From: Chrysochromulina tobinii
Lineage: Eukaryota
Reading direction: 5' to 3'
NCBI GenBank assembly: GCA_001275005.1
Contig: JWZX01003264.1
Span: 1 to 40,066 of the forward strand
DNA: 40,066 nucleotides
The position numbers were made by a program, and so were the translations under genes. The notes beneath the pieces are model-generated. The model was not told where the DNA came from and did no database searches. It worked only from the letters and a program-made list of their open reading frames with translations. Below are positions 1,145 to 23,600 of this stretch, one piece after another. Within the stretch, counting starts at the first letter, position 1. Each line of letters starts with the position of its first letter.

Positions 1145-3490
1145 ATGGGTGTTGAAGACGTCAAAGCGGCCTTCGAAGGCCTATCGATCCCGTGGGAGTG
1201 CGTCGAGCACAACCCCATCGAAAAGGTGGAGGAGGGCCTCGAGCTCGACTCGATCAAGTCGCTCGGCTGCAGCTTCGCCAAGAATTTGTTCATCAAGGAC
1301 AAGAAGGCTGGCTTCTTCCTGCTCGTGGTGACCGCGGACCGCAAGCTCGACATGAAGAAGCTGCCCGGCCTCCTCGGCAAGGGCACGAAGGAGTTCCGCT
1401 TCGCGGACGAGGCAGCGCTGAAGGAAAAGCTCGGCTGCGGCAAGGGCGCCGCCTCGCCGCTGGGCGTCATGACCGACGCCGCTGGCGAGGTGACAGTGGT
1501 GCTCGACGAGGAGCTGATGGGCGCCGCCAAGATTGGGTGCCACCCGTGCCAGAACGACCACACGCTCGCGCTCACTCCCGATCAGCTCAAGGCCTTCCTC
1601 GCCAAGTACTCGCACGAGCCGATGCTCGTCAACTTTGCGGCGGCGGCTCCTGGCGAGGCGCCGGCCGGCGGCGCCGCGGCGCCGCCGCCGAAGAAGGCGC
1701 CGGCGAAGATAGAGGAGGAGGCGAAGGTGGTGGGCAAGAAGGAGGGCGCCGATTCCAAGGGCCTCGAGTACACCAAGGCGGGCAACTTCCCCAACTGGTA
1801 CCAGCAGGTGATCCGCAAGAGTGAGATGATTGCCTCCCTCATCAGGTGATCCGCAAGAGTGAGATGATTGCCTCCCTCATCAGGTGATCCACAAGAGTGA
1901 GATGATCGAGTTTTACGACATCTCGGGCTGCTACATCCTGCGCCCGTGGTCGTTCAGCCTGTGGGAGGCGATCACCGAGTTCTTCGACGGGCGCATCAAG
2001 AAGATGGGCGTCAAGAACTGTTACTTCCCCATGTTCGTCTCCGAGGCGAAGCTGAACGCCGAGAAGGATCACGTCGAGGGCTTCGCCCCCGAGGTCGCGT
2101 GGGTGACCCGGTCGGGCGACGGCGAGCTCGAGCAGCCCATTGCGATTCGGCCCACGTCGGAGACGATCATGTACCCGGCGTACGCATGCTGGATCCGCTC
2201 GCATCGCGACCTGCCCCTGCTCCTCAACCAGTGGTGTAGCGTCGTGCGCTGGGAGTTTAAGCACCCGACGCCCTTCCTGCGCACGCGCGAGTTCCTCTGG
2301 CAGGAGGGGCACACCGCGCACGGCTCGTACGAGGAGGCGGACAAGATGGTGATGGACATCCTGGGGCACTACAAGGCCATCTACGAAGAGCTCCTCGCCG
2401 TGCCCGTCATCAAGGGCTACAAGACCGAGAAGGAGAAGTTTGCGGGTGGATTTCGGACGACGACGGTGGAGGCCTACGTGCCAGCGACGGGCCGCGCCAT
2501 CCAGGGCGCCACCTCGCACAACCTGGGCAAGAACTTTGGCAAGATGTTCAAGATCGAGTACGAGGACAAGCAGGGACAGAAGCAGATCCCCTGGCAGACG
2601 TCGTGGGGCTTCACCACGCGCTCGATCGGCGTGATGGTCATGGTCCACTCGGACGATACCGGTCTGGTCCTGCCGCCGCGTGTCGCGCCCATCCAGGTGG
2701 TCATTGTGCCGATCGTCATGAGCGGGATGAACCTGGACACGCTGAGCGGCGCGGCGAGCGATCTCGCGTCCCAGCTGCGCGCGAGCGGCGTGCGCGTCGA
2801 GCTTGACGATCGCGACAACTACAACCCCGGCTGGAAGTACAATTATTGGGAGCTCAAGGGAGTGCCGCTGCGCCTCGAGCTAGGTCCCAAGGACCTTGAG
2901 AAGCGGCAGGTGCGCTCTCCCTGGATTGCCCTTGATTACTATTGATTGCAGCTCCGCGATGTCCTCGAGAAGCGGCAGGTGCGCGTGCTGTCCAAGGTGC
3001 TCATGGGCCCTCGGCATGCAAGTGCTCATCACGGCGCCCTCGCCTCTCCCCACAGGTGCGCGTGGTGCGCCGCGATACGAATGCGAAGCTCGACGTGCCG
3101 TGGAGCGTGCTGCCACAGCAGATTGCGCTGCTGCTCGTGCAGATGCAGCACGAGATGCTCGAGCGCGCGACCGCGCTGCGCGACGCGGCGCTCAAAACGG
3201 TGGTCGAGTGGAAGGACTTCGTGCCTACGCTCCAGCTGGGGCACATGGCGCTCACGCCCTTCTGCAACGACGAGGAGGCGACGCACTTTGAGGAGCTCGT
3301 CAAAGAGAAGTCGAAGGCCGAGGCGCTCGCCGCGTCGGGCGCAGAGGCGGAGGACGCGAGGACGTCAACATCGGTCGCCGCCAAGACTCTCTGCATTCCC
3401 TTCGAGCAGCCGCCACTGCCCGAGGGCACTAAGTGCTTCATCTCGGGCAAGCTCGCCACCTGCTGGGTGCTTTGGGGACGCTCCTACTGA
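1145..3490 (+). CDS. proS: Eukaryote-type prolyl-tRNA synthetase with N-terminal YbaK/ProXp-ala editing domain; join(1145..1807,1884..2909,3056..3490)
   Basis: [10 protein letters not shown] editing domain; class II motifs [47 protein letters not shown]; anticodon domain [24 protein letters not shown]-terminal GRSY. Two phase-0 GT-AG introns restore the frame. Confidence 0.96.
1808..1883 (+). other. Intron made of two 38-nt units (copy of downstream exon start + tgcctccctcatcag)
   Basis: cag|gtgatccgcaagagtgagatgattgcctccctcatcag x2 |gtgatccacaagagtgagatgat; removal joins NWYQQ to [15 protein letters not shown]. Confidence 0.9.
2910..3055 (+). other. Composite intron: cassette-B unit 2910-2978 plus cassette-A unit 2979-3055
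   Basis: Internal copy of the exon junction gagaagcggcag|gtgcgcgtg at about 2967-2987; ends gcatgcaagtgctcatcacggcgccctcgcctctccccacag; removal gives [12 protein letters not shown]. Confidence 0.88.
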
Positions 3491-4350
3491 GCGCTGCCCT
3501 GCGCCCTCCCTCGCCTCCGTCGCCGGTGTGCGACGAGGCGTCGCGTGCGCAGGAGGCTTGCCGCTGTCCGTCGGCGCAGACGCACAGAGACGCGCCTGGA
3601 CGCGCCCGAGGGCGGCGGCTGCATGTGGCAATTGTGGAGGTGGGCCAGCCGAGAATAGAGGCCAGCGGGATTTCAGGGCTGGGGAGGAGCGTGTGGCAGA
3701 GGGCGCTTCGTGCCCTCCAGGTGGTGTCTTTGCGGTCTGAGGCGTTGAGCGGCTCTCACCGCCCGATCAGTTGCGCGTCCGAGATCGCACGCGACGTCGG
3801 AGGGCCCGGGAATGACACAGGTCACAGCACACAGCGTGTTGAGGGGGGGTGAAGACCCATGGTAGGTTGCATTCAAATTTCCCGAACAGGTGTAGGGTTG
3901 GGCCCTCCGACGCGTACATCCTATAGAACGTGCAACGTGGAAAAAACGGACGCGATGTCGGCGATTAGATCCGGCCCGGCCGTTGCTTCGCGGCCTTCCA
4001 AAGCACGGCATGTCCGGGCGCTTCGCGCGTCTTGCTCTCCGCACAGCGTCACCTCCGTCGCGCCTCTCGAAGCGGCGCGCGCGCGCGCGCAGCGCACTGC
4101 CTCGCGAGACGGCGAGAGATACTCTTCGTCGCAGGGTCGTCTGCCTCTCTGGTTGCGCTCTCTCTCTTCGCTTCATAAGCTACAGCTTGAGTGCGGTACT
4201 CATCAGCTTGAGTGCGGTACTGGTACGGCACCGCTCGACATTCCCGAAGCGCTCCCCCCCGTGATTATAGGCAACGCCCCCCGGCGGGCGCTTCCACCGA
4301 CCAGCCCAGCTACGAACTAGGGAGTGTGGTTGCGTCGCCACACGTCGTCG

Positions 4351-6576
4351 TTAGAGCCCAAACAATCGGCTCAATCGGCCACGCGCTGCGGCCTTGCGCT
4401 CGGCCAGGGCCTTGACCAGCCGCAAGACGTCCTTCTCGTCGAATTGGAGGACCGTGGCGATGACCTCGAAGAGTTGCTCGCTTTCGTCAGATCCCTCGAG
4501 CTCGATGAACTTGACGATGACGTGGCGCAGGTAGTCCAAGTTTTGGCTGTCGGCTTGGAGCACCGCCTGATGCCGCAGCTGCTGCAGGTCCGCTTGCGCC
4601 GCGTTCAGCTCGCCCTCGAGGGTCTGACTCCGTATGCGCTCAACCGAAAGCTCCGCGTGCAGGCGTGCCTGTGACAAGGCGAGCCGCTGGAGAGCACTGC
4701 CCTCGTCGCTGCCCTCGCCCACGCCGTCGCTGCCCTCGCCCAGGACGGCGCTGCCCTCGACCATGACGGCGCGGCCATTGCCCACGACGGCGCCGTCCTT
4801 GCCCACGATGGCGCTGCTCGCGCCGCCAACGCCAGCCCCGTCGGCGACAGCGCTCGTCGCAGCGCCGGCGCCGTCGTGGGCATGCCCACGGCAGCGCTCG
4901 TCCTTGCCCACGTCGGCGCCGCGCCGCACGCCGCCCGGGACGACGCGAGCCTGCCCCTCGGGTGGGCGAGTATGCTGTGCGGCGGCCAGCGCGGTCTGTG
5001 CGGGCGCCATGGTGGGCGCCATGGTGGGCGCCATGGTGGGCGCCATGGCGGGCGTCTCAGCAGCAGCTCTCATCGTCCATTCCAGCCCCGTCATGTCGGG
5101 CGCCATGTCGGGCGCGGGCGGCTCGGCGGCAGGGGTGGACGCGGCCGCGGGTAGCGTCCGCCGCCGCATCTCTTCCTCCTGTTGCCCAAGGAGAGCGCGC
5201 GCTTTCTGCTTCACCTGCTTCGTCATCGGAGGGAGCAATCAAGAGCAATCAAGAGCGATCAAGAGCAATCAAGAGCAATCAATCAAGGAGAGCGTGTGCT
5301 TTCTGCTTCACCTGCTTCGTCATCGGAGGGAGCAATCAAAAGCGATCAAGAGCGATCAAGAGCAATCAAGAGCAATCAATCAAGGAGAGCGTGTGCTTTC
5401 TGCTTCACCTGCTTCGCCTCCGCCTTGGCCTCTCGCGCCTCAGCGGCCGCCTCCTCGCGCGCGGCCTCCGCCGTCGCGAGCGCCTGCCGTGCCTCGACCA
5501 AGGCGGCCTCCGCCTCCTCCGCACGCCGCAATTCTTTCGCCGCCGCCGCCGCCGCCGCCTTCCACGACGCCGCCAGCTGAGCCCTCGCCGCCTCAGCCGC
5601 CTCGACGCGCGCCTCGAGTCCGCGAGCCCCATGGCCTGTGGAAGGCGTCTGGGGCACCTGCATGCAATGAGGGATGCAATCAGCGGCAATCAGCGGCAAT
5701 CAGCGGCAATCAGCCTGTGGACGGCGCCTGGGGCACCTGGGAGTGAGCCGGCGTCTGGGGCGCCCGACGCAGCGAGCGAGCCTCCGCGGCCTCGCGCTCG
5801 GCCGCCGCACGCGCCGTCGCGAGCGCCTCGCGGAGCTCGGCGGCGACCTCTTCGGCCGCGGCGCTCGCTTTCTCGGCCGCCGTTCGCAAGGATCGCTCGC
5901 GATGCAACTCGGCGGCTTGCTCCGTCACTTTCACCATCAGCATCTTCACACGTGCGCCCGAGGCATCGGACGCCGCGCCGCCAGCGCCGTTGGCGGCGAC
6001 GGTGCCAGCCGCCGCCGCCGCCGCGCCCTCCTCAACCAATGGTGCGACCGCCACGGGCTCCTGTGCCTTGGCATCTCCCGACGTGCGCAGACGAGCGATC
6101 TCAAGCTGCATCGCCGACTCCTTGGCGTGTGCCGTCTTCAGCGCCGCTTCGAGGCTCGCGATCTGCTCGTCCTTCTCACGCATCCGCTTGAGCGCCTTGA
6201 GCTTCGTGCTGTTGAGCTCCTCCACCAGCGCACGGATGCGCTGCTCACCCGCCTCAAGGGCCCGGCGCTGCTGCGCACACAAGACGTCGAGCGCTGGCTT
6301 GCCAGGAGTGGCAGGGACTGGTGCTGCCGCGCTCGGTGCCGGCGCCGGCTCGTCAAGATCGAACTTGATCGTACCAGCATAGGGCTCGTCAGATGAGGGA
6401 GCTGCCTCGGGCGGAGCACCATCCTCTGGGAAGAATTGTAATGACGACGTTGCGATCGAGAGCCGCGACGTGGCTTCGGACAGGGACAGGCTTGAAGCCT
6501 GCTCAGCCGCCTGTGCTGCCGCTGCCGCCGCATGCTCCGCTGCGGCGGCCGCTTGCTCGCGGAGCGCTGCGAACAT
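4351..6576 (-). CDS. Coiled-coil golgin-like protein with C-terminal GRIP domain; complement(join(4351..5214,5409..5657,5737..6576))
   Basis: Ala/Glu-rich heptads; C-terminal NLDYLRHVIVKFIELEGSDESEQLFEVIATVLQFDEKD matches the GRIP pattern (YL.n...F....e...L..vi.t.L.F); two phase-0 introns link three listed ORFs. Confidence 0.82.
5215..5408 (-). other. Intron of two 97-nt units (exon-junction copy + TGATTGCTCT decamer array)
   Basis: Sense: cgaagcag|gtgaagcagaaagcacacgctctccttg-attgattgctcttgattgctct...ccctccgatgacgaagcag, twice, then exon gtgaagcagaaagcgcgcgctctccttg. Confidence 0.88.
5658..5736 (-). other. Intron (24-nt downstream-exon copy + TGATTGCCGC array)
   Basis: Sense: cag|gtgccccaggcgccgtccacaggc-tgattgccgc x3-tgattgcatccctcattgcatgcag|gtgccccagacgccttccacaggc. 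Confidence 0.88.
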
Positions 6577-6583
6577 GAAGACC

Positions 6584-6616
6584 CAAGTCAAGTCAAGTCG
6601 AGTCAAGTCAAGTCAA
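6584..6616. repeat. (CAAGT)n / (GACTT)n pentanucleotide microsatellite
   Basis: caagtcaagtcaagtcgagtcaagtcaagtcaa immediately upstream of the golgin ATG. Confidence 0.95.
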
Positions 6617-6726
6617 ATCCCACAGGAGACGACGAATCCCAATAGAGAAGGGACCTAGATGCCCTATAGGCCTAATTCTATTCCCGCCAACCCGATTGCG
6701 CGCGGTGGCGGGCGAAAAAACAAAAC

Positions 6727-7512
6727 ATGGCGTTCCAGTATGCTGAACCAGGTGCGCTGGGCGACCTGGGCGCCGCGACCGTCGCGCTGCTGGTGTGGTA
6801 CTATGTGGCGTTGTTTACGCAGAGCTACGCCAAGATTGCGCTGGTGCAGCGGCAGCGGCGAGCCTCGTTCGGGCTGCTGAGTTACAGGACCTGCTCTTAC
6901 ACGGACCCGGCCGTCGCGCGTTTAAAGTACGGGGTTCCGCACGACTCGCCTATCGCGCTGACTGCTGATCGCACGGCCGGCAATCTGAGCGAGCAGCTGG
7001 TGCCGTTCTTGGCGTCAGCGTGGCTCCGCGCGCTCCTAGTGCCGGGCGCAGCTGCATCGAGCGGCCGTCTGTGCTATGCGTATCTCGTCTCGAGAATGGT
7101 GTACCCCTTTGCCTTCTACGCCGGCCACCCATTGCTCCAGCTCTCAACACAGCCGGGGTACTTGATTGTGTGGGGACAGCTCGCAGACCTGTATATGTTT
7201 CACGCCGGGGATCCGCCAACCTGGTGGTCTGCCGCGCGCACTGAGGTTGCTATTCTTACGCTGGCCGCTGCTTGTGAAGTCCTCATCCTTGGCCAATGGG
7301 CTGCCGCAAGGTTGTCGAAGGGCGACGCTAGCAAGGACCAGTCCGATGCGAGCACGCAGCCGCCATCTCCGCCGGGGAGTTCGCGGCGCAAGGCGCAAGG
7401 GAACAGGCGTGACGCGCCTTCTCGCTCCCCGAGTCGCCACGAGACAGATTGCGCGTTGCGCCGGAGCACTGTTGCGTCGCCGTCGGTGGAGGTGGTGAGA
7501 AGGCACACGTGA
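6727..7512 (+). CDS. MAPEG-family membrane protein
   Basis: Hydrophobic helices with ADRTAGNLSEQLVPFL (R...N..E) and YLVSRMVYP motifs; low-complexity C-terminal tail. Confidence 0.75.
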   Translation: MAFQYAEPGALGDLGAATVALLVWYYVALFTQSYAKIALVQRQRRASFGLLSYRTCSYTDPAVARLKYGVPHDSPIALTADRTAGNLSEQLVPFLASAWLRALLVPGAAASSGRLCYAYLVSRMVYPFAFYAGHPLLQLSTQPGYLIVWGQLADLYMFHAGDPPTWWSAARTEVAILTLAAACEVLILGQWAAARLSKGDASKDQSDASTQPPSPPGSSRRKAQGNRRDAPSRSPSRHETDCALRRSTVASPSVEVVRRHT

Positions 7513-7695
7513 TCGTGGACTGAGACTGTGTTTGAGAATACTCTAGAAATACGCGGGTCCTTGCCTCGCTCTGAACCGTTGCATCCCAGGGCAACACAGG
7601 TCGCACAGCGATCGGCCCGCACACGACCTCACACCGACGTCACGCGAGGCGCAGCGCCCGGGGGCCGGCATGTGTGGATTATATACACAGAGAAG

Positions 7696-8322
7696 TCATA
7701 GCACGTGGCTCAAGGGCGTGCCGCTTCCATCGGCGGCTGCGGCCGCCTTGAGTCGCGCGTTGCGTTGCTTTCGCTGGCCGAGCGCGTCGAGCCCGCAGCG
7801 CACGAGCATGACCAGACTCACGAGGATGATGACGACCTTCATCATCGGCAACATCCATTGGCCTAACAAGACGTCACCAGCGTCCAGTTCCTGAGCGTTG
7901 TCCGCAGGCTGCCCCCCATGCACAGCATGGGGATTCGGCAAGCCTGCATCATATTTCAGGAGCGGAGTGGCAGCAATCGCCGATTCCCTATGCCATCTGG
8001 TCGCATTGTTCACAGGGACCACGGAGGTGGGAGGCTTGAACTCGGCCTGGAAGAGCGCGTGAAGCTGCTTGTAGCTGTACATGGAAAGGTCGAGGGTCCT
8101 CTTGCGGCCGTCGTCGTCCTCCACCACTAGATCGGGATTGTGATGACGAATCCACTCAATCTTGACCATTGAGTACTGGTCGACACCGCCCGGCTCCTTC
8201 AGAAAGCGCTTTACCTGAGGCAAGCTATTGAGCTTTCAGGCGGGGCACGATATGACAGTGCCACGCTTGGCGACAGATGACGGCAACTGCATCACGAGAA
8301 CAGCAACCCCGAATCGGCGCAT
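7696..8322 (-). CDS. SELENOM: SelM/Sep15-family selenoprotein (CxxU; UGA at 8236-8238) with signal peptide and C-terminal transmembrane helix
   Basis: MRRFGVAVLVMQLPSSVAKRGTVISCPA-UGA-KLNSLPQVKRFLKEPGGVDQYSMVKIEWIRHHNPDLV. The in-frame TGA sits at the Sec position of SelM (CGGUQLNRL) and Sep15 (CGUKLGRFPQV), with family similarity on both sides. Confidence 0.85.
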
Positions 8323-8577
8323 GTTGCTGCGCTTTCTTGTGCCCCTCGAGCAAAAACAGGGCGCAGTACGAGAGAGAGTAGCCTATTTATAGAACGGGGT
8401 GTGAAGGAGGTACGGCGCCGGAAAAGAAGTGCGGGGACATGTTTCGTCAAGCCATCATCGTACTTCCTCTTTTGGGAGTTGACGAGACGCGCGTGCGAAC
8501 CGCCACCACATGGAATACGGGTAGCGCTCATCCTCTCATCCGAGGCTCTTATTCACCCCCAACTCCCCACCCCCTCC

Positions 8578-9660
8578 ATGAGCGCCGACGACGGTACAAC
8601 CACCAGGAGTTCCTACAAGGCCCCGACTTCTTTCGATGCTCTCCTCTCGGAGCCCAAGGGGAAGACTGTGTACTTTGCCGGCGAGGCATTTATGCTTCAC
8701 GTCTTTTGGGAGACTCCTTCGCGCGAGGCTGCCACAGAACTCTTGAGAGGTCTCTCCTTGTGCGCTGCGGCGACCCACCGCAACACTCCATGCGTGCCAG
8801 TCTACTTCTTCAGATTATCCAGCTGTGACGACGACCTCTGCCCACCGCCCCCAACAACGGTGGGGAACTTTCCCGCGCTGATGGATGCCTCCCGCAAACT
8901 CTCCAGAGGCGTCCCCGCGCCCGCTGTTCACGCTGAGCTAAAGAAGAAGGGTGTTGACGTGGCGCTCCTTTCCTTGCCCACCGACGCTCCCCTTCCACCA
9001 GAACTGCTGAACCGCCAAGCGTGCATCATCGAGCTTACCGAGGTGTACCTTGACGAGCGCGCGTTTGTGGAGCACGCCGGGAGTCGCGACTACCTCGACG
9101 GGCACGCGGCCGTCATGAGTCCTGCGTTGCAGAGTATCAGGCGGCCACGGTCTCTGCAGCTAGGAACTCCGAACGCGGGATTGGTGGAGCGCATTTTGGA
9201 GCCTGTGCTGCAGGCTACTGAAGTCCCACTCGGCGGCGGGAACTGCTTCGTTTGGCGTCCCTTGCCATCCCCGTCACCGAACAATGAGGAAGAAGGCGGA
9301 GGCGCTTCTATGTTCCTCTCTCTCGACACAGAACGGCTTCCCCCCGACCGCGCATCCGCAGCTCTACCCTCGGCGTTCGTCGAATTGTGCTGTACCCTAA
9401 CAGTCTTCGAGCACCCTCTTCGCGACGGAGCAACTCGTGTCATGGCTGTGCTCTACGAGTGGCCGACTGCCGCCCTCCTTGAGGAAGTTGACCGCGCTCT
9501 GCTGCACGTCGCGCGAGGACAGGCCCATGTGCTTGACGCCGAGAGAGCGGCATCGCTCCCGCAACTCTTTGAGGCTGCTGGCCTTCATGGGCGTGTGATT
9601 CTCAACACCAACTCTGCGGGCTACGTCCTTCACTCCAAGGCGGCACACCTGACGACGTAA
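8578..9660 (+). CDS. Hypothetical protein, possible ABM-like (dimeric alpha-beta barrel) domain
   Basis: Intronless 360-aa ORF; FMLHVFWETPSREAATELLRGL...VYFFRL and IIELTEVYLDERAFVEHAGS resemble two halves of an ABM fold. Confidence 0.6.
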   Translation: MSADDGTTTRSSYKAPTSFDALLSEPKGKTVYFAGEAFMLHVFWETPSREAATELLRGLSLCAAATHRNTPCVPVYFFRLSSCDDDLCPPPPTTVGNFPALMDASRKLSRGVPAPAVHAELKKKGVDVALLSLPTDAPLPPELLNRQACIIELTEVYLDERAFVEHAGSRDYLDGHAAVMSPALQSIRRPRSLQLGTPNAGLVERILEPVLQATEVPLGGGNCFVWRPLPSPSPNNEEEGGGASMFLSLDTERLPPDRASAALPSAFVELCCTLTVFEHPLRDGATRVMAVLYEWPTAALLEEVDRALLHVARGQAHVLDAERAASLPQLFEAAGLHGRVILNTNSAGYVLHSKAAHLTT

Positions 9661-9776: not shown

Positions 9777-10221
9777 CAGCATGGGGATTCGGCAAGCCTG
9801 CATCATATTTCAGGAGCGGAGTGGCAGCAATCGCCGATTCCCTATGCCATCTGGTCGCATTGTTCACACTCAGGGACCACGGACGAGGTGGGAGGCTTGA
9901 ACTCGGCCTGGAAGAGCGCGTGAAGTTGCTTGTAGCTGTACATGGAAAGGTCGAGGGTCCTTTTGCGGCCGTCGTCGTCCTCCGGACCACTTCCACTAGA
10001 TCGGGGGGGTTGTGATGACGAATCCACTCAATCTTGACCATAGAGTACTTGTCGACACCGCCCGGCTCCTTCAGAAAGCGCTTTACCTGAGCGCTGAGGC
10101 AAGCTATTGCGTTGAGCTTTCACGGTTTCAGGCGGGGCACGATATGATAGTGGTTAGTGCCACGCTTGCCGACAGATGACGGCAGCTGCATCACGAGAAC
10201 AGCAACCTCGAATCGGCGCAT
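9777..10221 (-). pseudogene. 3'-truncated, frameshifted copy of the SelM-like gene (duplication extends through the promoter to about 10383)
   Basis: Near-identical to 7923-8322 but with many small insertions; Sec TGA retained at 10128-10130; lacks the TM-coding end and 3' UTR. Confidence 0.9.
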
Positions 10222-10476
10222 GTTGCTGCGCTTTGTTTGTGCGACTCGAGCAAAAACAGGGCAAGTATAATGTGAGAGTACTGTACCGGTAGCCTATTCA
10301 TAGAACGGGGTGTGAAGGAGGCACATGTTTCGCGGGAAAAGACAGGCGGGGTACATGTATCGGGAAAAGACATGTATCGTCACCCTTCCACATAATGGAG
10401 CTGTGAAGACAAGTAGTGGGGGGCCGTTTACGTGAAGTGTGTGTTCATACAAGTAGAAGACGAGCGAGCGATCACC

Positions 10477-13491: not shown

Positions 13492-13504
13492 TGAAGCTGA
13501 GCGA

Positions 13505-13817: not shown

Positions 13818-15950
13818 ATGAACAGGCCATCGCGGACGGCGACGCTCATCCTGCTCTCCGCCGCGGCGGGCTTCCGCGCGGGCCCGCGCGTGCCGCCATT
13901 CGGCCACGCCGCCGCCGCTGCACGCTCTAGCGTCGCATGCTCTATTGCTGTGCCCGTGCCGCCCGCCGATAACGATAGGACCGTCGTGGACGGCCCCAAT
14001 GGACCCATCCTCGTGACCAAGGTCAAGGGCAGTTACTACGCCGTCGACGCGACCTGCCCTCACCTCGGCCTTCCGATGAAGCGTGGCAAGGTTGCCGACG
14101 GCGCGGACGGCGTGACGCTCACGTGCAGTTTCCACAACAGTTGCTGGGCGATGAAGGATGGAAGCTGCAAGAAATGGGTGACTGGTGCGCTCGGCATCGA
14201 GAATGAGGCTGCCGCCGGCGTCATGGGCAAGCTGGGTGGCCAGAAAAGGAGCATCAAGTCTTACAAGGTGGCCGTCAACCAGGACGGCTCGCTCACGCTT
14301 GAGTCGAACTCACTGATGCTGCCTGCACAGCCGCCTGCCGCCTCCGTGATCCGTACCATGGTGCCCGATTCGCCGTCGGGCTCCGAGTTCGAGACGCTCG
14401 GCGAGGCCGACCACGGGCCGGTCGGCGTGCTGCTGCTCTCGGTGGGCGCGCCCGAGACGCCCGACGACGTCGAGGAGTACTTGTACAACGTCTTCTGCGA
14501 CCCGGAGATTCGCACCCTGCCTCCCGCCATCTCTTGGGCGTTCAAACGGCCTCTCGCGTGGCTCATCGCGCGCGAACGCGCCGAGGAGGCGCGCGAGTCG
14601 ATGCGGCTCGCGGGCGGGCGCTCGCCGCAGCTAGCGACGATCCAGGCGCAGGCGAAGGCGCTCGGGACGGCGCTCGCTGACCGAGGCGTCGATGCGCGCC
14701 CCTTCATCGCGATGCGCTACTGGAAGCCGTTCACCGAAGATGCCGTCGAGGCCATGAAGGCGGAGGGCATCCAGAAGCTGGTGATCCTGCCGCTGTACCC
14801 ACAGTTCTCCCTCTCGACGTCGGGCTCGGCGCTGCGCGTGCTCGAGCGATTGCTCTACACGGACCCGGGCTTCCCCATGAAAACGTCCGTCGTGCCCGCG
14901 TGGTACAACCGGCCACTGCATGCATGCACGTGCTCACCACGGCGCCCTCCCCCTTCCCCACAGGTCCGTCGTGCCCGCGTGGTACAACCGGCCCGGCTTC
15001 CTGCAGGCGACGGCCAAGGGCATCGCCGATACGCTTGCCTCGCTGCCCCGCGATGCGCGGGGGACGGCGCACGTGCTGTACACGGCGCAGGGCCTGCCGC
15101 GCAAGTACGTCGACGACCTTGGCGACCCATACCAGGAGCAGGTCGAGCGGTGCGTGCAGCTGGTGAGTGACGAGCTCGGCGCGATGGGCATCGCTAACAA
15201 CCGCTCTCTCGCGTACCAAGGTACGATCGTCCCACTGAGGGCCACTGAGGGCCTTGAATGGCCTCGAATGGCCTTTGAATGGCCTCTTGCTTGCCCCAAT
15301 GGTCTCTGCGTGCCCTAATGGCCACTCCTCGCATCCTTCATCAGGCGCCTTCGGGCCGCAGCCTCTGATGACCGCTGATGACCGCTGATGAGCTCTGATT
15401 GCCTCCCTCATCAGGCGCCTTCGGGCCGCAGCAGCTGCGCTGGCTCGAGCCGTCGACCGCGTCTGAAATCGAGCGGCTTGCGGCCCAGGGAGTGCGCTCC
15501 TTAGTGCTCGTGCCCATCTCCTTTGTCTTCGAGCACATGGCCACCCTCAACGTGATGGACTGCGAGTTCGCCGGCGTCGCGGCGGCGTGCGGCATCCAGT
15601 CCTTTGTGCGCGTCCCTACCCTCGGCGTGGAAGAGACGTTCATCGGGGCGCTCGCCACGGTAGTCATGGAGGCCTTGCCCGACCTGTCGCGCCCTTCCTT
15701 CCAGCAGATCAACGCGGGCACGCCCGTCGCCCTCAATATGGTCAATGAGTACACACGGCTGTACACCAAGGACCAGCTGCAGCTAGTCCCGCAGGAGCAG
15801 CCGTGGGGCTTCACGCAGGAGGCGGAGATCATCAACGGGCGCATCGCGATGACCGCGATCACGCTCGCGCTCGCGCTCTCACTCGATCCATCGCTCAAGG
15901 CCATCGTGGCCGTCTACCGAGCCGCTGCCGGTGCCGCCGGCGCCATGTAA
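13818..15950 (+). CDS. Plastid-targeted Rieske [2Fe-2S] + ferrochelatase-like + CAB/HLIP-helix fusion; join(13818..14884,14964..15220,15415..15950)
   Basis: Signal + transit peptide (LILLSAAAG-FRAG); Rieske CPH (14055-14063)...CSFH (14124-14135); HemH-like GVLLLSVGAP, MRYWKPFTEDA, LPLYPQFSLSTSGS, GDPYQEQV, WLEPST, VPISFV; C-terminal WGFTQEAEIINGRIAM. Confidence 0.85.
14885..14963 (+). other. Intron (perfect 30-nt downstream-exon copy + cassette A)
   Basis: aaac|gtccgtcgtgcccgcgtggtacaaccggcc-actgcatgcatgcacgtgctcaccacggcgccctcccccttccccacag|gtccgtcgtgcccgcgtggtacaaccggcc. Confidence 0.92.
15221..15414 (+). other. Composite intron with degenerate decamer arrays and a duplicated acceptor (15344 and 15414)
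   Basis: catcag|gcgccttcgggccgcagc occurs twice, separated by tgatgaccgc repeats and tgattgcctccctcatcag; removal gives AYQGAFGPQQLRWLEP. Confidence 0.85.
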
Positions 15951-16520
15951 CACTGTGCCCCGGCGGCAGCGGAAGCGTCCAGCCGAACAAGGCAGCTGCC
16001 CCCCCGGGCGCGCCTTGCGGGCGCGGGCTTACCCTACTTGGTATTTGCCCGAACGAGCCACGGCTGCGGCGTGAGCGGTCCGCGGTAAACCGTAAACGCG
16101 TCGACGGCCGCGAGGGAGGCAGCTCGTCGCGCTCGTGCTCTCCTCAGCGGAGATGTCGAGACGGCGTGTGCCATAGAGCATAGTGCGCCTTTGTGTGGAG
16201 CGTGCCAACAAAGTCGCTTGGCCGTCGATCCCGACTATTCGTCTGAGGGCCGGGCAACGGGCCGTTCGAAACGGCGTCCATTCTTAACAAAGATACTCAC
16301 GTCCGACCGCGCATGCACCATTTTTCGATCCGTTTCGCTGCGCTCGACCGATCGCCCACTCCAAAAAGGGACGGGAAATGCAAGTTGCATGTCGACAGTA
16401 ATTTCAGAAATTACCCGTGTGTTCTGGTGATGTGCTTTTTTGGCATGTGCTCGGTTTCCAATTTTGGCAAGTGCTCGCATTTACTTTTTTAGATTTTGAC
16501 GAAATTTTAGTTTTCAGTTT

Positions 16521-16624
16521 GAGATTTGATGCCACCGATGACCACTGATGACATGACCTCTGATGACCACTGAGATGACCACTGATTTCCGCGGATTACC
16601 ATGACCTCGCTCCTCTCCCCACAG
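16521..16624 (+). repeat. Orphan cassette-B decamer array ending in an acceptor-like ctccccacag
   Basis: gccaccgatgaccactgatgacatgacctctgatgaccactga...cctcgctcctctccccacag|gtgg, outside any recognisable gene. Confidence 0.65.
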
Positions 16625-17738
16625 GTGGAGTTATCCAACGGCCGAGCTGTGTATCTCAAGCCAGCCGAGCAGGGGGCGCCTCAGGGTATGGATCTCGGAC
16701 GTGCGGCATGCGCGGCGCGTCGCGGCCGGTCGCTTACTCTATCGCGTTTAGGGCGGAGGCGCGGCGGCTCATCGCATAAACAACGTGTAACGTACCGTAC
16801 AAGCAGGAGGCCCGCGACCCGCGTGGTCCCTGCGTGCTGGCCGGGTTGTGCCGGGTAATATCAATGAATCTCCGATACGCATGAATGCAGGATACATACC
16901 ATAAGTAACCCTGACTCAACCCCCCAGTCCGTACAGTTCGGCCGTCCGTGGAAAGCGAACGGACAACGCAAAGGGGGGCCGCGTCGCCGTCGGCCGTCGC
17001 CTGTCTTCTTGTCGCGCTAGTGTCACGCGGCGGACGCGCCTGTGTCATGTGTGAGGTTAGTGTGAGGTCGCCCCGCGCAGAGCGGAGATAGCGGCTATCT
17101 CCCGCTCCCGGCTCACCCGCCACGCCCGGCGAGGCGGCGTGAGTTTGTTATGTGTCTATTGTGAGTCGACAGTCGTGCCCCTCCGCCTCCATCCCGGACC
17201 CTAGTCGCTGTCTAGACTAGGACGCAGAGCCCGGGCCCTCGCGAAGCTGGCCCTAGCGCCTAGGCCAGCTCTCGGGGCTGTTTGTTCATTCTTCATAAGA
17301 CATTCAGGTCCATCCTGTGCGATCTGCGATGCAACCGATACGGTCGTGCGTTACTTTGCTTGCCCCAGAAGACAACCATTCTAGCGCCTTTGGCGCTAGA
17401 ACTCAGCATGTCCCGCGACTCGCCCTGCACGCTCCAGTCATCCCACCACCCACGGGTCAACAGGCACGACAACACACTGTGAGTGTGTGACGACACTCTG
17501 TCTCGACACTCGAGTCTCGATGGACACGAACAAGTCACAACCATCCACCCCCCCCACAAACCGCAGCGACGATGGTCGATGCACCGCAACACCCGCGGTG
17601 GCGACAACGTACGTGCACACTCAGGAGGCAAGGGCGAGAGCGATGACGAGTACGAGCAAGCGAGCAGGGCAATCGACTCGTACACGCGCCGGGCGTGCCG
17701 CGACTCCCTTGCGGCGCATCACTCACTGCAGGGCAGCA

Positions 17739-18794
17739 TCACCAGTTATAATGTCGACCGATCTGATCAAGGCCACTGTAAGCATACATTCCGGTTGAGA
17801 ACCAGAAGTCGCGACGTTCACTTCCCCACGTCACGAATCCTGCTCTGCTTGCCTCCTCGAAGGAGAAGCCCGCCACCTTGCACTGGTATGGTCGATAGCC
17901 AGCAGCCTTCATCTGCTCGATCGTGAAGCCTGCCGCCTTAGCTTCCTGCGCTGTATGAGTTCCGGGTCCCAGGTGCCCTGCACTGGTGAGCTCCTCAATC
18001 GAGAAGCCAAACACGTTGCACTGGCGTGAAGTATAGCCAGCAGCCTTCATCTGCTCGATCGTGAAGCCCGCCGCCTTCGCTTCCAGCGTTGTATGAGTTT
18101 TGGGTCCCAGGTGCCCTGCACTGGTGAGCTCTTCAATCGAGAAGCCCGCCACGTTGCACTGGTACGAATCATAGCCAGCAGCCTTCATCTGCTCGATCGT
18201 GAAGCCCGCCGCCTTGGCTTCCTGCGCGCTATGAGTTTGCTTTGCTTTCATGGGATTTACATGCACCCAGCGCTGCCGCGTGGTGAGAGAGATTGGCAGA
18301 GCATTGCTACGGGTATAGCGATTGAACTCGTCGGCAGAAAGCTTGGTCAGCTGCCAGGTTGGATCATGTGCAGCAGCGCGAGCGGCAACGCTCCAATCAT
18401 TGCACACGAAAAGCAACCGGCCCAGGTGACTCAGATCCAGAAAGTAGCAAACGGCCATAAGAACGTCCAAAGTTAGATCAGTTGTACAATCCGCCGATTT
18501 TGCTCGGGCCGCAGCATCTCTAACCTCGAAGAATCTTGCTTCAGTAAGTAGGCGTCGCCGGTCGGCCTCATCTTCAATCTGTCGGCGTCGCCGCTCGGCG
18601 TGGTCGGCATCTTCACGCTCCAGAGATTCACGCCGCCGCTTCCGGCACTCAGGTGTCTCCCCAACAGACCACTGCACGCACTCTGCCTCCGCGGACGGTG
18701 CAACGCCGAGGAGGTCCAGCGGATCGGCGCTGGAGCTGGCCGTACAACAACTTGCATCCAACGTTCGGTTCGGCCAGGAGTACGGCGGCGGCAT
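17739..18794 (-). CDS. F-box protein with C-terminal 46-aa tandem repeats
   Basis: LTLDVLMAVCYFLDLSHLGRLLFVCNDWSVAA F-box; about three 138-nt repeats (THxxxEAKAAGFTIEQMKAAGY...C.V.GFSIEEL); start codon uncertain. Confidence 0.7.
   Translation of the reverse strand: MPPPYSWPNRTLDASCCTASSSADPLDLLGVAPSAEAECVQWSVGETPECRKRRRESLEREDADHAERRRRQIEDEADRRRLLTEARFFEVRDAAARAKSADCTTDLTLDVLMAVCYFLDLSHLGRLLFVCNDWSVAARAAAHDPTWQLTKLSADEFNRYTRSNALPISLTTRQRWVHVNPMKAKQTHSAQEAKAAGFTIEQMKAAGYDSYQCNVAGFSIEELTSAGHLGPKTHTTLEAKAAGFTIEQMKAAGYTSRQCNVFGFSIEELTSAGHLGPGTHTAQEAKAAGFTIEQMKAAGYRPYQCKVAGFSFEEASRAGFVTWGSERRDFWFSTGMYAYSGLDQIGRHYNW
17840..18240 (-). repeat. 138-bp coding tandem repeat (about 3 units)
   Basis: gtgccctgcactggtgagct at 17973 and 18111; ccagcagccttcatctgctcgatcgtgaagcc three times. 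Confidence 0.9.
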
Positions 18795-19481
18795 CAAAAG
18801 GTGCAAGCCCCAACCCTGGCAGTCTCGCTGCACACCAGGTCTCGCTCAATAACCATCATGTACGGATACCTCGAGGAGGAAAACGAAAGGCTTGCTTTCT
18901 TCCCGTTCCACACCGGACACGAGACATATTTTTCCTTCGTTCGTTCGTTCGTTTTATCATGAATCGAAACAGTTCTCGAATGAATTCGTGCATCGCAGCC
19001 GATTCGGCGCTACACGCCGCGCTGCCTCCGGTCCGCGAACGGACTCGCTCACTCCGCGCTGGTGCACTCTCTCCTCGTCCTCTCGATCTAGGACTAGGTT
19101 CGGAGATCCTCTGTTCATTGCCTCTGTTCCTCTCTCTCTCGCTCGAGTCGACTCTCTCCTGAAGTCTCTCCACACTCTGTCTCTCTGATAATCGGATCTC
19201 TCAGTCTGATGATCGCTCTCGCCCGCGCGGCTCCGCACATCGACCGTTACGATGCAGTCTCAGCCCGCCAGCCACGCCGCCTCTGATGACTCTCTCAATC
19301 TCTCTCAATGGACCCATGCGATTTGATTCGTGTCATTCGAGTGCCCGGTCCTACCGGGCCGCCGCCACGCTGTGCACTCGCGTCCCCGCACGCGTCCGAT
19401 GACCTCCGCGCATCTCCATCTCCATCTCTCGCTGCGCGTCCACGTGTCAGGTCCGTCCGAAGACGAGCTTCGTCAGCTCCG

Positions 19482-20483
19482 TCAGAAGACGAGCTTCTGC
19501 GTCAGGTGATCGTACCCTCCGCGGGTGTGGTCCAGCGCCCGTGCAGTCATCACCGTGTGCGGTGAGCGGCCGCGCTCAGGCGAGCTCGCTCCCCATTTGC
19601 GTGCCGTGCGAGACGATGCGTGTCGAAGCGGCGAGCCCAGCCGCATCGGCGAGCCCAGCATGCCACCGGCAATCTCGGGCGTACCTGTACCGGGGCGTGC
19701 GAAGCCGAGCGGCATGCCCAGCGGTGACGTGAGCGGCCGCAGGGGCGTGAGCGGCCGATCGGGCTGCAGTCCGAACGGCGAGTTGGGACTCGTACCGGCC
19801 CCAGGCGGAGATGGCACGCGCCCAGCCGAGTCACCCAGCGACGGCAGAGAGCCGCGCGAGGGGCTGCGCAGCGAGCCCGAGGCAGTGTGCAGCGTGCGCC
19901 GGAGCAGACGCTCCTCGGCTGCAAGCGAGGTGGCAAACGTGGACGCGCCCATGTCCCCAGGCCCGCGCTGATCCTGAGCTCTCTCCGCCTCGATCTTGTG
20001 ATCCATCTTGCTGATGAGCGCACGCTCACGGAAGAAGTCGAGCATGCGCACGCCCGGAGACGCCGATGGCAGGTGGGGCACACCATACTTGCGCAGGATC
20101 GCCTCGACTTGCGCCCGCAGAACGGTCGTGTTCTTCACCCAGACTGGGCTGGTGCCCACTCGGCGCACTGCAAAGTGCTGAAAGCTGTTGATGCTTTCGT
20201 CGGTGGACGAACCGGTGCCATAGCGGCCGTACTTATTCTCCTGGCTGCGCAGCATGAAGAGCAGGTCGCGCTCTTCGACGGAGAACATCCGGTCCTGCGC
20301 CAACAGCGGGTCGCCCAGCTGGCACAGGGGCCAGAAGGTGCGATAGTTCTTCGCGAAGACCTTGGCACACAGGGGGAGTGGCAAGCCCTTTGTGACAGCC
20401 CACTCCCAGAGGACGGCCGTTTGTACGTCGCGAAGGTCGGCGGGGTTCGCGACTTGTTTGAAATACGCTGTGCCCTGGCTCAT
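19482..20483 (-). CDS. Hypothetical protein (globular N-half, Ser/Pro-rich C-half)
   Basis: 333-aa ATG-initiated ORF with GC3-rich codons, head-to-head with the gene at 20695. Confidence 0.65.
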   Translation of the reverse strand: MSQGTAYFKQVANPADLRDVQTAVLWEWAVTKGLPLPLCAKVFAKNYRTFWPLCQLGDPLLAQDRMFSVEERDLLFMLRSQENKYGRYGTGSSTDESINSFQHFAVRRVGTSPVWVKNTTVLRAQVEAILRKYGVPHLPSASPGVRMLDFFRERALISKMDHKIEAERAQDQRGPGDMGASTFATSLAAEERLLRRTLHTASGSLRSPSRGSLPSLGDSAGRVPSPPGAGTSPNSPFGLQPDRPLTPLRPLTSPLGMPLGFARPGTGTPEIAGGMLGSPMRLGSPLRHASSRTARKWGASSPERGRSPHTVMTARALDHTRGGYDHLTQKLVF

Positions 20484-20694
20484 GTCGTGAGCCCTCTACG
20501 CGCGCAGCGCAAGCGCGAAGTCTGAGTGAGTGAGTGATTGAGTCATCGTCTCGCAGTTCCGCAAATTTCTAGGTTCGAACATGTAGAATGAAAGAGACCG
20601 TGATTCTCTACCGAGCTTACTTTCGGGTTCGACGAAATTCAAAACGCATGTCTAATTCCGCATGATGGCTGCTTCTGAGTAGCGCGCCGCCATC

Positions 20695-23600
20695 ATGGCC
20701 ACCGTGCGGGACGCGCACCTCCTCGAGGAGAGCCTCATGGAGAGCCTCCAGGTCGCCCACGTGGAGGCTCGCCAACGAGTCGTCATCCCTCCGTCTAGCT
20801 CTTCATCGCCGCGCGTCCATTCGTCGCCGCGGCTGCTGCGCCCGGGCACCGCTCCCTCCAACGGGCGCCCAGTGCCACACGTGCTACACAGCGTATCCAG
20901 CAGTCACGACGCGGCGACCGTGCAGCGTTGGACGGGCGAGCCTGGAGTAGACGACGAGAGCCTGCCCTCCGAGCGCGAGAACAAATCGTACCTCGAGACG
21001 CTCGCCGCCCGCGCCGCCGACCTGGCCAGCGAGCTGTACCGACTCAAGCTGGTAGGCGGCATGGACCTCACCGGCAAGGTGTCGTCGCCCAGGATGTATG
21101 CAGGCAGGATGGGCTCGTCGCCCAAGATTGCGCCCCACAAAAAGTCCGTCTCGGGCCGAACCGCGGCCGCTTCCGGCCGCTCGAAGAAGAGCGGCAGCGC
21201 CCGGGCGCACCAGAGTGTGGCCGCCGCTGAGCCTACCACGTGTGCGCCGGCGGAGGCGACTGCAAGGGCCGTCTCATACGAGGAGCCGAGCAATCCTTTC
21301 TTCCTCTCCGGACGGCACGTTGCTGCGGCGGACCTGCCGATTACCGGTCAGGAGCACAGCAGCACGCCGAGTGACCCTACCGGCTACGGGCAAGGGCTGG
21401 TGCATGCGATGACCCTGGAGCTCGAAGTCGAACAGGAGAAGCGCGTCGCACACCTGCAGCAGCTGGGTGTGAAGCGGCTGCGCAGCCAGGCTATCGCGCG
21501 TGCCTGGTCGGCGTGGCACAGCACGTGGTTTGAGATGACCAAGGCGCGGCAGGTGATGATTGCCACTGATTGCCTCTGATTGCCACTGAGTGCCTCTGAG
21601 TGCCTCTGACTGCCTCTGATAACATCTGAGATGACCATGGCGCGGCAGGAGGCTGCCCTCGAGGAGTCGAGATCCGAGCTCGCGAACGCGACCCATCTGT
21701 GCGAGCGCCAGCGGCTCGAGCTCGAGTCCCTGCGCGGGCGCGGTGCGGCGGTCAAGGTGGCCTCAGCGTACGCGGTGCATACCGGCACGCCTTGGAGTAA
21801 AGAGGACGAGCTGCGGTTCCATGCGCTTGCGAAGATGGGGGACGACGGCAAGTACAGCGATGGGCTGCGCGAGCTACTCGACCTCGCGGTAGTCGCCACT
21901 ACGGCGCGCGTGTCGGACGCGCTGCGTGAGGCTGCGCATGCACGCGCCGTGTCGGAGCGAGCGGATCGAGAGAGCCTCCAGGTGATGATTGCCACTGATT
22001 ACATCTGATTACATCTGATTACATCTGATTGCATCTGATTGCATCTGATTGCATCTGATTGTCTGATTGGCTCGAGAGCCTCCAGTTGATGATTTCACTG
22101 ATTGTCATCTCTCTGCTGGCCTCTCTGCTGGCCTCTCTGAGGACCACCGATGGCAACTGATGGCTTCTCTCGATCGACTCGCCGCACGCTGCCTGCGCCC
22201 AGCACCTCGAGGCCGCGTTCAACGGGAACGACCCGGCGAAGCTCGTCGCGCGCCGCGCTGCTCGTACAGACGCAACGGACCGCCTCGCGGCTGCGCGCGG
22301 TCGTGGGACGTCTCGAGCATGAGTCAAGCCTCGCGCAGTCGACCCACGTGGCCGATGTACGCAGCCTCTCCGATAGGCTCGTCGCTAGGCACGATGCCCA
22401 TCAGGCGCTACTCCTTGTGGAGCTCGAGCGTGCCGACAGCGCTTGGGCCACTTCGGTCAGCGCCCTCGAGGCACGCATCACCGACATCCGACGCTCTTGG
22501 GCGAGTGAGGTGCATGCGCGTGGCCTCGAGGGCACCCCTGCCCTGCATGCAAGTGCTCACCACGGCGCCCTCCCTTCCCCACAGGTGCATGCGCGTGACC
22601 TCGAGCTCCACCGGCTGCATGCAAGTGCTCACCACGGCGCCCTTCCCCCTTCCCCACAGGTGCATGCGCGTGACCTCGAGCTCCACCGGCGGCAGTCGCA
22701 GCTCGATGCGCTCACCACCAAGCTCGAGGAGGCCGAGGAAAGGCACACCTTTGAGAGTCGCATTGCCGCCACCGATGGGCGCACGCTCAAGGCCGAGGTC
22801 GTGCGGCTCGAGACGGCGCTCGAGGCGGCGCGTTTGGAGCACGGCAGGTTGGAGAAGGAGAAGCAGAAGTTGATCGTGCAGTGCGTGAACCAGTCGGCCG
22901 ATGCGGGCTCGGCGAGTGAGGGGCTGCAGCAGCTGCTGCGGCAGGAGCAGCAGGCGCGCGCCGAGATGCAGGAGAGGGCGACGGGCTGCTTGCGATCGAG
23001 AAGGAGCAGCGGCGCGCGCGTGAGATCGAGCTGCAGCACGAGATCGCGAGGGAGCGCAAGGCGAGCGAGGTGCGCGAGGCTCTGATTGCCTTGATTGCAT
23101 CTGATTAGCCAGGATTGCATCTGATTAGCCATGATTGCGGGCCAGATGCTCAAGGCTGTTGACACCCGATGACTTGATTGCATCTGATGAGCCATGATTG
23201 CGTCCTTGCTTAGGTGCGCGAGGCCGCGATGCTCAAGGCGTACACGGCGCTGCAGGAGGACAAGGCAGCGATGGAACTGACTCTCCACACGAGGCTCAAG
23301 CGCCTCGAGACAGTCCACGAGCAAGAGAAGGCTGTGCTGCGCGCGCGCGTCGACAGACTCTCGAGGCTGCAGGAGGAGGCCATCAATGCGGGCGGCGCGC
23401 AGAAGACGCGTGCGCTGCTCTGGCACGCGGCGCTCAAGTCGAAGACGCAAGCCGAGGATAGCATCTCGTGGCGCGGCGAGAACAGCCCAGCCCTCAATGA
23501 GGCACCCCGGTGGAAGGCGCAGCAGTGGGCGGAGCAGCAGTGGGCGGAGAGTGCCTCCGGCACTGCACCACATCTCGCCTCTTCCTCGACTTCGTACGAC

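Follow-up and report, generated by a model that had tools for sequence, protein, structure and literature searches.

The origin of new spliceosomal introns is a long-standing question. Recent surveys attribute most ongoing intron gain to transposable elements (PMC12130899), and repair and duplication models come without a source for the branch point and acceptor (PMC4202315). The question is raised again by a 40,066-nt contig of the freshwater alga Chrysochromulina tobinii (hereafter the window), in which a first-pass annotation had described ten introns, each with a copy of the adjacent exon and one of two shared cassettes, A and B. All ten introns were recovered at the same starts, in four genes, and are given here with an internal control.

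1145..3490, plus strand: prolyl-tRNA synthetase (ProRS) gene by Pfam, two introns, 707 aa open once spliced
1808..1883, plus strand: ProRS intron, two 38-nt units, with a 23-nt copy of the downstream exon start and a family-A acceptor end overlapping by a few bases; seen in RNA
2910..3055, plus strand: composite ProRS intron, A-type repeats, internal exon-junction copy (2963-2987) and cassette B (about 3014-3055); seen in RNA
5215..5408, minus strand: GRIP-domain gene intron, two 97-nt units, comprising a 28-nt downstream-exon copy, A repeats and an 8-nt upstream-exon copy giving the AG; predicted from the open frame
5658..5736, minus strand: GRIP-domain gene intron, 24-nt downstream-exon copy plus A repeats; predicted from the open frame and exon-copy score
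12887..13263, minus strand: RPL18A intron (internal control), without exon copy or cassette; skipped in RNA
14885..14963, plus strand: first ferrochelatase intron, in phase 2, in which a perfect 30-nt copy of the downstream exon is joined to cassette B; the same in L020, L043 and L055
15221..15414, plus strand: second ferrochelatase intron, in phase 1, in which an older-looking core is followed by an 18-nt copy of the downstream exon (15345-15362) and another A acceptor end; seen in RNA
21553..21648, plus strand: gene 4 intron 1, A-type donor start and repeats, AG from a 22-nt upstream-exon copy
21982..22202, plus strand: gene 4 intron 2, A-type donor start as in intron 1, internal 12-nt upstream-exon copy (22074-22085)
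22510..22659, plus strand: third gene 4 intron, built of two 75-nt units that each join a copy of the downstream exon to cassette B
23070..23213, plus strand: gene 4 intron 4, 11-nt downstream-exon copy, A repeats and an internal 12-nt exon piece

RNA contigs from three RNA runs (14 are on record) were searched for splice junctions. Among the joints listed, three of the ten introns were skipped exactly with GT..AG ends: 1808-1883 in two runs (skip of 76), 2910-3055 in three (skip of 146) and 15221-15414 in two (skip of 194). The remaining seven are predicted introns. The RPL18A intron was likewise skipped with GT..AG ends (skip of 377). Once spliced, the ProRS, GRIP-domain and Rieske-ferrochelatase frames are open (707, about 643 and 619 aa), and ProRS homologues are continuous across both intron sites. 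The earlier claim that splicing restores the protein thus stands for three junctions and four frames, with the qualification that gene 4 (810 aa) has its open frame in L044 alone, a near-identical assembly compared to which the window carries an additional base at 22253 and lacks one at 22980. Reading of the junctions also bore out the placement of eight introns in phase 0 after CAG or GAG, the ferrochelatase introns being the other two.

Every one of the ten introns contains a copy of its adjacent exon, as had been described, with anchored best pieces of 11-35 nt; at most 3 of 400 random 60-mers from the window equalled the exon-copy score of any of them. By the same control the RPL18A intron scored at chance level (P 0.97), so that its description as free of such copies holds, for one intron rather than several. 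Read from the sequence, it carries a similar branch-point-like motif about 40 nt upstream of its acceptor. In seven of the ten introns one terminal splice site comes from the copy; in 2910, 15221 and 21982 the long copy is internal. The proposal that the exon copy donates one splice site and the cassette the other is partly supported. Filler beyond the duplication is present in all ten.

The two cassettes differ in kind. Cassette B is a true shared sequence, present in three of the ten introns, and its core has eight matches in the window compared to 0.01 expected. What had been called cassette A is more loosely defined, as a family of repeat units of 10-11 nt; its exact 19-nt acceptor end occurs in two of the ten introns and has three matches in the window compared to 0.00 expected. 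The Emiliania genome paper reportedly describes 10-11-bp intronic repeats. The cassette patterns had no match in the viral contigs or prokaryote genomes searched, and Rfam gave no match in the window at the gathering score. Conservation falls sharply immediately upstream of the B core, as at the end of a defined element, although the search was built on that core and the drop is partly ascertainment.

Misjoining or chance repeats would be a scarcely credible source of this anatomy. Short-read assemblies can misjoin at repeats, two single-base discrepancies lie in gene 4 of the window, and one wider locus, L116, could be such a misjoin. However, the same introns are present in the independent assemblies L004, L020, L043, L044 and L055, one of them 0.26% diverged, and are therefore not an assembly artefact; RNA contigs skip three of them exactly, and shuffle controls were far exceeded.

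Wider counts rest on 123 metagenome loci (L-numbers) chosen by cassette B from 13 of 64 metagenome parts scanned, out of an estimated 610 or so stretches. These loci held 165 full B cassettes, of which seven had flanks that were too short and were set aside. An anchored downstream-exon copy accompanies 113 of the remaining 158, compared to 0.6% of shuffled pairings. With orthologues merged, 108 of 151 cassette-B acceptor sites carry a copy of 10-56 nt (median 26), its length continuous with no fixed size, so that the exon copies recur outside the window, in loci chosen by that cassette. Among these 108 copies, 95 begin with GT, 86 are preceded by G and 52 are perfect; mismatches total 120 in 2,868 copied bases. 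The spacer is zero or less in 20 of the 108, and the median intron is 77.5 nt. Pure tandem genomic duplication was rejected, as filler is present in all ten window introns and AG precedes only 43 of the 108 B copies. Family A acceptor ends carry an exon copy in 45 of 88 cases, tandem units included, compared to 2.5% after shuffling. In 286 cassette-containing repeat pairs, GT..YAG lies on the cassette strand in 126 and on the other strand in five.

Three loci with tandem 48-nt B units (L057, L100 and L105) were excluded from the repeat-pair, filler and truncated-fragment analyses. Their arrays were considered as master copies and rejected, each array lying within one intron and looking like a local expansion. 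Filler of type A or B occupies 174 of 305 repeat pairs with filler, in loci that were chosen by cassette B. This share exceeds what random capture suggests, a point against a template-switching reading. In flanks more than 3 kb from a match we counted 13 B cores and seven A ends in 86 kb, a density too biased to give a genome total.

The annotation had proposed comparing orthologues for presence and absence. Two filled/empty pairs were found, in each of which one population is filled and another is empty with a single copy in the same reading frame. An 81-nt intron of L022 is missing from L006 and L015, and a 78-nt intron of L008 is missing from L009. We infer gain rather than loss at both sites, from two-allele comparisons with which precise loss is also compatible. 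Precise loss belongs to a reading that we consider improbable, in which the introns are older, their ends merely remodelled by duplication and filler. Events on existing introns are indeed clear at 15221, 21982 and 22510 and in L012 compared with L116 and L026 compared with L034; some events enlarged or doubled existing introns (15221, 21982, 22510, L012 vs L116), and the ferrochelatase intron at 15221..15414 is likely an extension of a pre-existing one. Against remodelling in general, many introns consist of exon copy and cassette alone, with no older core left, about half of the B-site copies are perfect, and both copies at L008 share one base that differs from the empty allele.

The source of the filler can be followed in several cases. 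The non-duplicated 48 nt of the L022 intron match a neighboring intron about 520 nt away. Other introns carry another intron's exon copy: in L019, 7625 from 5927 and 4999 from L081; in L074, 4296 from 4518; L110 from L006; and L116 from L109. Sharing of at least 10 nt just upstream of the cassette occurs in 8 of 122 same-locus pairs and in 8 of 11,172 other pairs, the pairs not being independent. Within a locus, B cassettes are overall no more similar (Mann-Whitney P 0.30), and sharing in family A is no more frequent in same-locus than in other pairs (2/52 vs 79/1,839). The downstream exons of donor and daughter are more alike than those of random pairs starting with GT (4.6 vs 3.2, P 0.007, for pairs picked by eye; P 0.06 with exact-prefix pairs), which fits an unspliced template.

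Cassette copies also occur outside introns. Of the cassettes that lack an acceptor, 24 of 43 lie between direct repeats of at least 12 nt, a raw count without a shuffle control. These truncated fragments are mostly in the sense of nearby introns (27 the same, three opposite, 13 unplaced). Fragments in both orientations form in-frame coding insertions in L009, L052, L061 and L085 and at 32830 in the window.

32830..32888, minus strand: cassette-B fragment, antisense, 3'-truncated, between 14-nt direct repeats; not an intron
33110..33164, strand not assigned: two more cassette-B-like cores in opposite orientations, in the same ORF as the 32830 fragment

The first is a 45-nt in-frame insertion in a plus-strand ORF, at which a distant homologue is gapped and a close homologue carries the fragment; both stretches of the second are gaps in the close homologue P0240. 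The process appears to add short peptides to proteins. The fragment at 32830 is shared with a diverged relative, as older introns would predict, and the process is therefore not brand new.

These observations bear on the claim of a reusable cassette as a discrete unit, which found no support in that form. Variable 5' reach, missing acceptors, antisense copies and carried exon copies of other introns indicate that the cassette is probably not a discrete element and that the template looks like existing introns. A MITE-like DNA-transposon introner with its transposase elsewhere in the genome is disfavored, and we rate it as very improbable. Introners have been reported from marine Chrysochromulina MAGs, one of them with a 4-bp TSD and no TIR (PMC9860276), and introners typically draw one splice site from the duplication and the other from the element. 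Published duplications, however, are 3-9 bp and fixed per family, with members that match at both ends (PMC9860276; bioRxiv 10.1101/2020.10.14.339549; PMC12130899), whereas those found here vary continuously over 10-56 nt, a single end is shared, ends vary and pieces of donor exon are carried along. As the annotation had reported, no TIRs and no transposase were seen: the longest terminal inverted match at the 108 sites measures 5 nt in the insert and 6 nt when the whole intron is taken, and Pfam found neither transposase nor reverse transcriptase among 25 ORFs or exons of the window. Helitrons were rejected as a class without target-site duplication, given the long duplications.

The introners of Symbiodinium, Polarella glacialis (classes 4/5 and 6/8/10), Aureococcus and the marine Chrysochromulina MAGs have several features in common with these introns: similar introns form families at new positions, the duplicated target gives one splice site and the insert the other, the mRNA is restored exactly, and phase 0 is favored. 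Similar introns do occur here in unrelated genes and are spliced, with positions empty in relatives in two filled/empty pairs only. The operational definition of an introner requires similarity at both intron ends (PMC9860276), and here the 5' ends are site-specific exon copies. The alga's introns are set apart from the MAG introners by published descriptions.

We consider it probable that template switching guided by microhomology, in the course of DNA repair or replication, gives rise to these young introns, with the end of an existing intron being copied and splicing filtering the survivors. Synthesis would leave the target 10-56 nt beyond a G|GT, pair over a few bases with an existing intron, whether close by or elsewhere, and copy its branch region and acceptor, sometimes starting within the donor's own exon copy. 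It would then return to the target at G|GT, aided by similarity to the donor's acceptor junction, and the duplicated GT would serve as donor site, such that splicing restores the original mRNA. In a mirror form, the duplication would cover the upstream exon and supply the AG, with A-type repeats filling the middle. Splicing would act as a filter and not as a cause, unspliceable products being left only where they keep the frame or lie in non-coding DNA. Every intron gained would be a further donor, and two families may therefore have come to dominate. The enzyme and the use of DNA rather than RNA as template are the parts of this reading that we infer. Of the staggered-break or template-switch model first proposed, the variable exon duplication and the templated branch region and other splice site recur beyond the window, and the discrete cassette is not supported.

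An RNA template is unlikely but is the leading alternative. The reverse transcriptase would be supplied by a non-LTR element or a repair polymerase. Priming at a nick beside G|GT, it would copy the 3' end of an intron, with pre-mRNA or intron RNA as template; the duplication, long and variable, would be a retrotransposon-type TSD, and cassette B would be an RNA, either SINE-like or derived from an intron. Target-primed reverse transcription characteristically leaves duplications of variable length, truncates 5' ends with microhomology and keeps the 3' end of full copies constant. Such features are seen here, same-gene donors and the sense bias fit a transcript, and the mismatch frequency in copied bases would fit error-prone synthesis or age. 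However, the 3' end is missing from many copies at varied points, B copies end without poly(A) or a tandem tail, and 24 of the 43 acceptor-less copies also lie between direct repeats. The window holds no tRNA-, 5S- or 7SL-derived head at the Rfam gathering score and no reverse transcriptase, five intron pieces folded no better than their shuffles (z -0.2 to 0.9), duplications reach 56 nt and the mirror form would need the opposite polarity. Similarity that continues into the downstream exon of the donor makes an excised lariat less likely as template, pre-mRNA still being compatible. Reverse splicing of an excised intron, which would be whole, seamless and sense only, was rejected, since copies are partial, duplications are present and some fragments are antisense.

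Polymerase theta-mediated end joining and fork template switching produce templated insertions from local and distant templates in either orientation. They share with the template switching favored here microhomology at both junctions, this range of templates and orientations, and tandem duplication; we know of no case in which they are the source of self-amplifying intron families. Introns formed by double-strand-break repair in Daphnia have exon-intron repeats of 4-12 bp and filler of mostly unknown source (PMC4202315; PMC3443670). In the alga, too, the adjacent exon recurs as a direct repeat at the intron boundary, here above background, populations are polymorphic and young introns hold repeated secondary duplications, whereas the alga's repeats are longer and its filler traces to other introns, forming families. 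In tandem genomic duplication across AG|GT (PMC3443670) a duplicated exon segment also gives the splice sites, and mirror-form A introns duplicate across AG|GT; that model, however, has no foreign filler or recurring family, and the AG of B introns usually comes from the insert. Intron transposition, template switching by reverse transcriptase, RNA-assisted end joining (PMC3443670) and sister stwintrons (PMC8469720) likewise take splice signals from existing introns, but move whole introns seamlessly, with no flanking duplication in Hypoxylaceae, whereas here only the end is copied and the duplication is long. A literature search whose coverage stopped short of subscription papers found no description of an exon copy joined to a shared splice signal.

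In this alga the source of branch point and acceptor is visible and the process is polymorphic in natural populations. We tentatively put forward a transposon-independent, self-amplifying form of intron gain, in which ends of existing introns are copied during repair synthesis into exon sites that become duplicated, and the parent is recorded in the foreign exon carried along. The links between donor and daughter open the mechanism to testing in an alga that can be cultured and has a small genome. A published introner screen that requires similarity at both ends lists C. tobinii with zero families, a blind spot for introns of this kind. If this form of gain is real, introns would multiply without a transposon, and a genome-wide intron genealogy could be reconstructed from the carried pieces of foreign exon. 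Introner screens would miss the process by design, and it may be common in haptophytes and elsewhere.

Each of the ten introns that the first-pass annotation had placed in four window genes contains an anchored copy of its adjacent exon; their coordinates held, and no more than 3 in 400 segments drawn at random from the window matched as well. Eight of the ten are in phase 0 after CAG or GAG, as had been reported. In the case of RPL18A, the exon-copy score was at chance level in the same comparison, in keeping with the claim that this gene lacks the feature, but a single intron rather than several was seen in RNA contigs (three RNA runs, joints listed). In these same joints, 1808-1883, 2910-3055 and 15221-15414 were spliced out exactly, with GT..AG ends, and the remaining seven introns are predicted from sequence. 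Splicing had been said to restore the proteins, and removal of introns does open the frames of prolyl-tRNA synthetase (707 aa), a GRIP-domain gene and a Rieske-ferrochelatase gene (domains by Pfam). The fourth gene (plus strand; introns 21553-21648, 21982-22202, 22510-22659 and 23070-23213) is open, with a length of 810 aa, only in the near-identical assembly L044, from which the window differs by two single-base indels, an extra base at 22253 and a missing base at 22980, with the frame shifted between them; both are probably sequencing errors in the window. The same introns are present in independent assemblies, and an artefact, a poorer fit, is extremely improbable. Window proteins group at 90% clustering with proteins named Chrysochromulina parva, and the host is therefore a freshwater Chrysochromulina, presumably of the tobinii/parva group.

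Two shared cassettes had been proposed. Family B does recur as a core of about 25 nt, followed by a pyrimidine tract and CAG (8 window matches vs 0.01 expected), and its consensus includes a candidate branch-point-like motif. Family A instead consists of repeat units 10-11 nt long, often with a 19-nt acceptor at the end (3 window matches vs 0.00 expected). Metagenome contigs scanned for family B yielded 123 loci (L001-L123), in which 165 of 221 distinct B contexts end in an acceptor. Among the 158 of these with enough flank, the cassette is preceded by a duplicate of the start of the downstream exon in 113, compared to 0.6% of shuffled pairings; with orthologues merged, the copy is found at 108 of 151 sites, some of which are tandem units of one intron. 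These 108 copies are 10-56 nt long (median 26); 52 are perfect, 95 have GT at their start, 86 are preceded by G and 43 by AG. For family A, 45 of 88 acceptor ends, tandem units counted, have an exon copy (vs 2.5%). A search starting from direct repeats gave 286 pairs with A or B in between, with GT..YAG on the cassette strand in 126 and on the other strand in 5, and also revealed a mirror form, with the AG provided by a duplicate of the upstream exon.

Mismatches between copy and exon at B sites fall on AG dinucleotides at 21 of 276 positions and elsewhere at 99 of 2,592, an excess that may reflect selection against cryptic acceptors. At L057, L100 and L105, one intron has expanded by tandem repetition of a 48-nt unit with a B core, and unit counts differ between assemblies. 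Simple repeats of 5 and 6 nt, possibly further families, act as filler between the exon duplications of some introns (L007 ~4800-4900, L063 ~3860-3960, L028 ~1400-1450) and are also found close to the starts of window genes (6585-6615, 25757-25790). An orphan intron-like 3' end lies at 16500-16624 (plus strand), in which a pyrimidine tail of B type and CAG come after A-type repeats; an upstream coding exon is not evident.

Overlapping loci were compared pairwise, and two of the 13 comparisons paired an allele containing a complete B intron with one containing a single copy of the segment. These were L022 (81 nt; L006 and L015 empty) and L008 (78 nt; L009 empty), with 1.6-1.7% divergence across both cases. 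The empty allele keeps the frame of the spliced filled allele. Three other differences were an extra unit in an existing intron. We infer that L022 and L008 gained introns; two alleles fit precise loss as well, and the alternative that old introns were remodelled, with empty alleles arising by loss, is a poorer overall fit and improbable.

Outside its duplication, the L022 intron matches the neighbouring intron ~520 nt away. In five introns, part of another intron's exon copy sits between the cassette and the intron's own exon copy:

L019 7625, piece from L019 5927, 1.7 kb apart
L074 4296, piece from L074 4518, 222 nt apart
L019 4999, piece from L081, different loci
L110, piece from L006, different loci
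L116 (possibly a misjoin), piece from L109, different loci

The direction from donor to daughter is therefore readable, and donors lie upstream, downstream or elsewhere. At least 10 nt just upstream of the cassette are shared by the two members of 8 of 122 same-locus pairs vs 8 of 11,172 others, pairs being non-independent. Over eight pairs picked by hand, the donor's downstream exon resembled that of its daughter more closely than random pairs starting with GT resembled each other (P 0.007 when scored, 0.06 for the exact prefix), which suggests that the template was unspliced. Read from these sequences, the template of new introns appears to be other introns. Against this reading count whole-cassette similarity, which is no higher within loci than between them (P 0.30), the absence of same-locus enrichment in family A, and the abrupt loss of conservation upstream of the B core.

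The mechanism first proposed, exon duplication plus a cassette, keeps its variable exon copies, whereas its insert probably derives from other introns. A double template switch at microhomologies, which would duplicate the target and copy the end of an existing intron, is the simplest account and a fairly probable one, its enzyme and template type being putative. An RNA-templated version, on pre-mRNA or SINE-like RNA, would leave a nearly identical product and is a distinctly less probable possibility. As had been claimed, neither TIRs nor a transposase were found, the latter among 25 window ORFs or exons, in which no RT turned up either; Rfam gave no match and folding revealed nothing special. 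A MITE-like introner fits less well and is very unlikely.

Splicing acts as a filter on the products of the proposed switch. After exclusion of 13 in tandem arrays, 24 of 43 acceptor-less B cores, truncated at different positions, lie between direct repeats of at least 12 nt (a count without shuffle control); relative to the nearest intron, the 43 comprise 27 in sense orientation, 3 in antisense and 13 unplaced. Some of these fragments sit in frame within coding sequence, as judged by open frames, with sense copies in L009, L052 and L061 and antisense ones in L085 and, of A type, in L052. One more lies in the window:

32830-32888, antisense, in-frame insertion of 45 nt; a distant homologue is gapped there and a close one has the insertion

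The long low-complexity gene at 30884-34761 (plus strand) has a frame change near 32600, and its homologue P0240 is a single protein of 1,223 aa. Four B-like cores (32692, 32848, 33110, 33147) lie in this gene, two of them inverted relative to each other. Other window features were as follows:

7923-8446 and 9777-10362, diverged direct repeat of ~520-590 nt either side of an ORF without Pfam match (8578-9660, 360 aa); a local duplication or old insertion may explain the arrangement
13818-15950, plus strand, Rieske [2Fe-2S] domain fused in frame upstream of ferrochelatase; spliced model 619 aa
17739-18794, minus strand, ORF with decapeptide repeats (PF25296); 138-nt coding units vary between assemblies
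27091-27870, plus strand, strong match, in a haptophyte, to the pyrenoid shell protein family of diatoms (PF25192, E 8e-77)

No report of an exon-copy and shared-cassette intron architecture was found in the open literature. In the portions of the papers cited here, introner duplications are 3-9 bp, similarity at both intron ends is required, and introners are listed in marine Chrysochromulina MAGs (PMC9860276); a survey list gives C. tobinii zero introner families (PMC12130899); and the Polarella classes described have fixed duplications of 3-8 nt (bioRxiv 10.1101/2020.10.14.339549). Those portions also describe exon-intron repeats of 4-12 bp with filler mostly of unknown source (PMC4202315), proposed intron-gain mechanisms (PMC3443670) and proliferating introns without duplications (PMC8469720); they include no haptophyte case (PMC11282704) and mention introns once, at about one per gene (PMC4580454). 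Overall, the phenomenon is real and polymorphic, and it occurs generally in this lineage. It behaves as an introner, but its variable duplications and lack of TIRs set it apart from the transposon-derived kind, and we class it as uniting break-repair intron gain with intron-to-intron copying.
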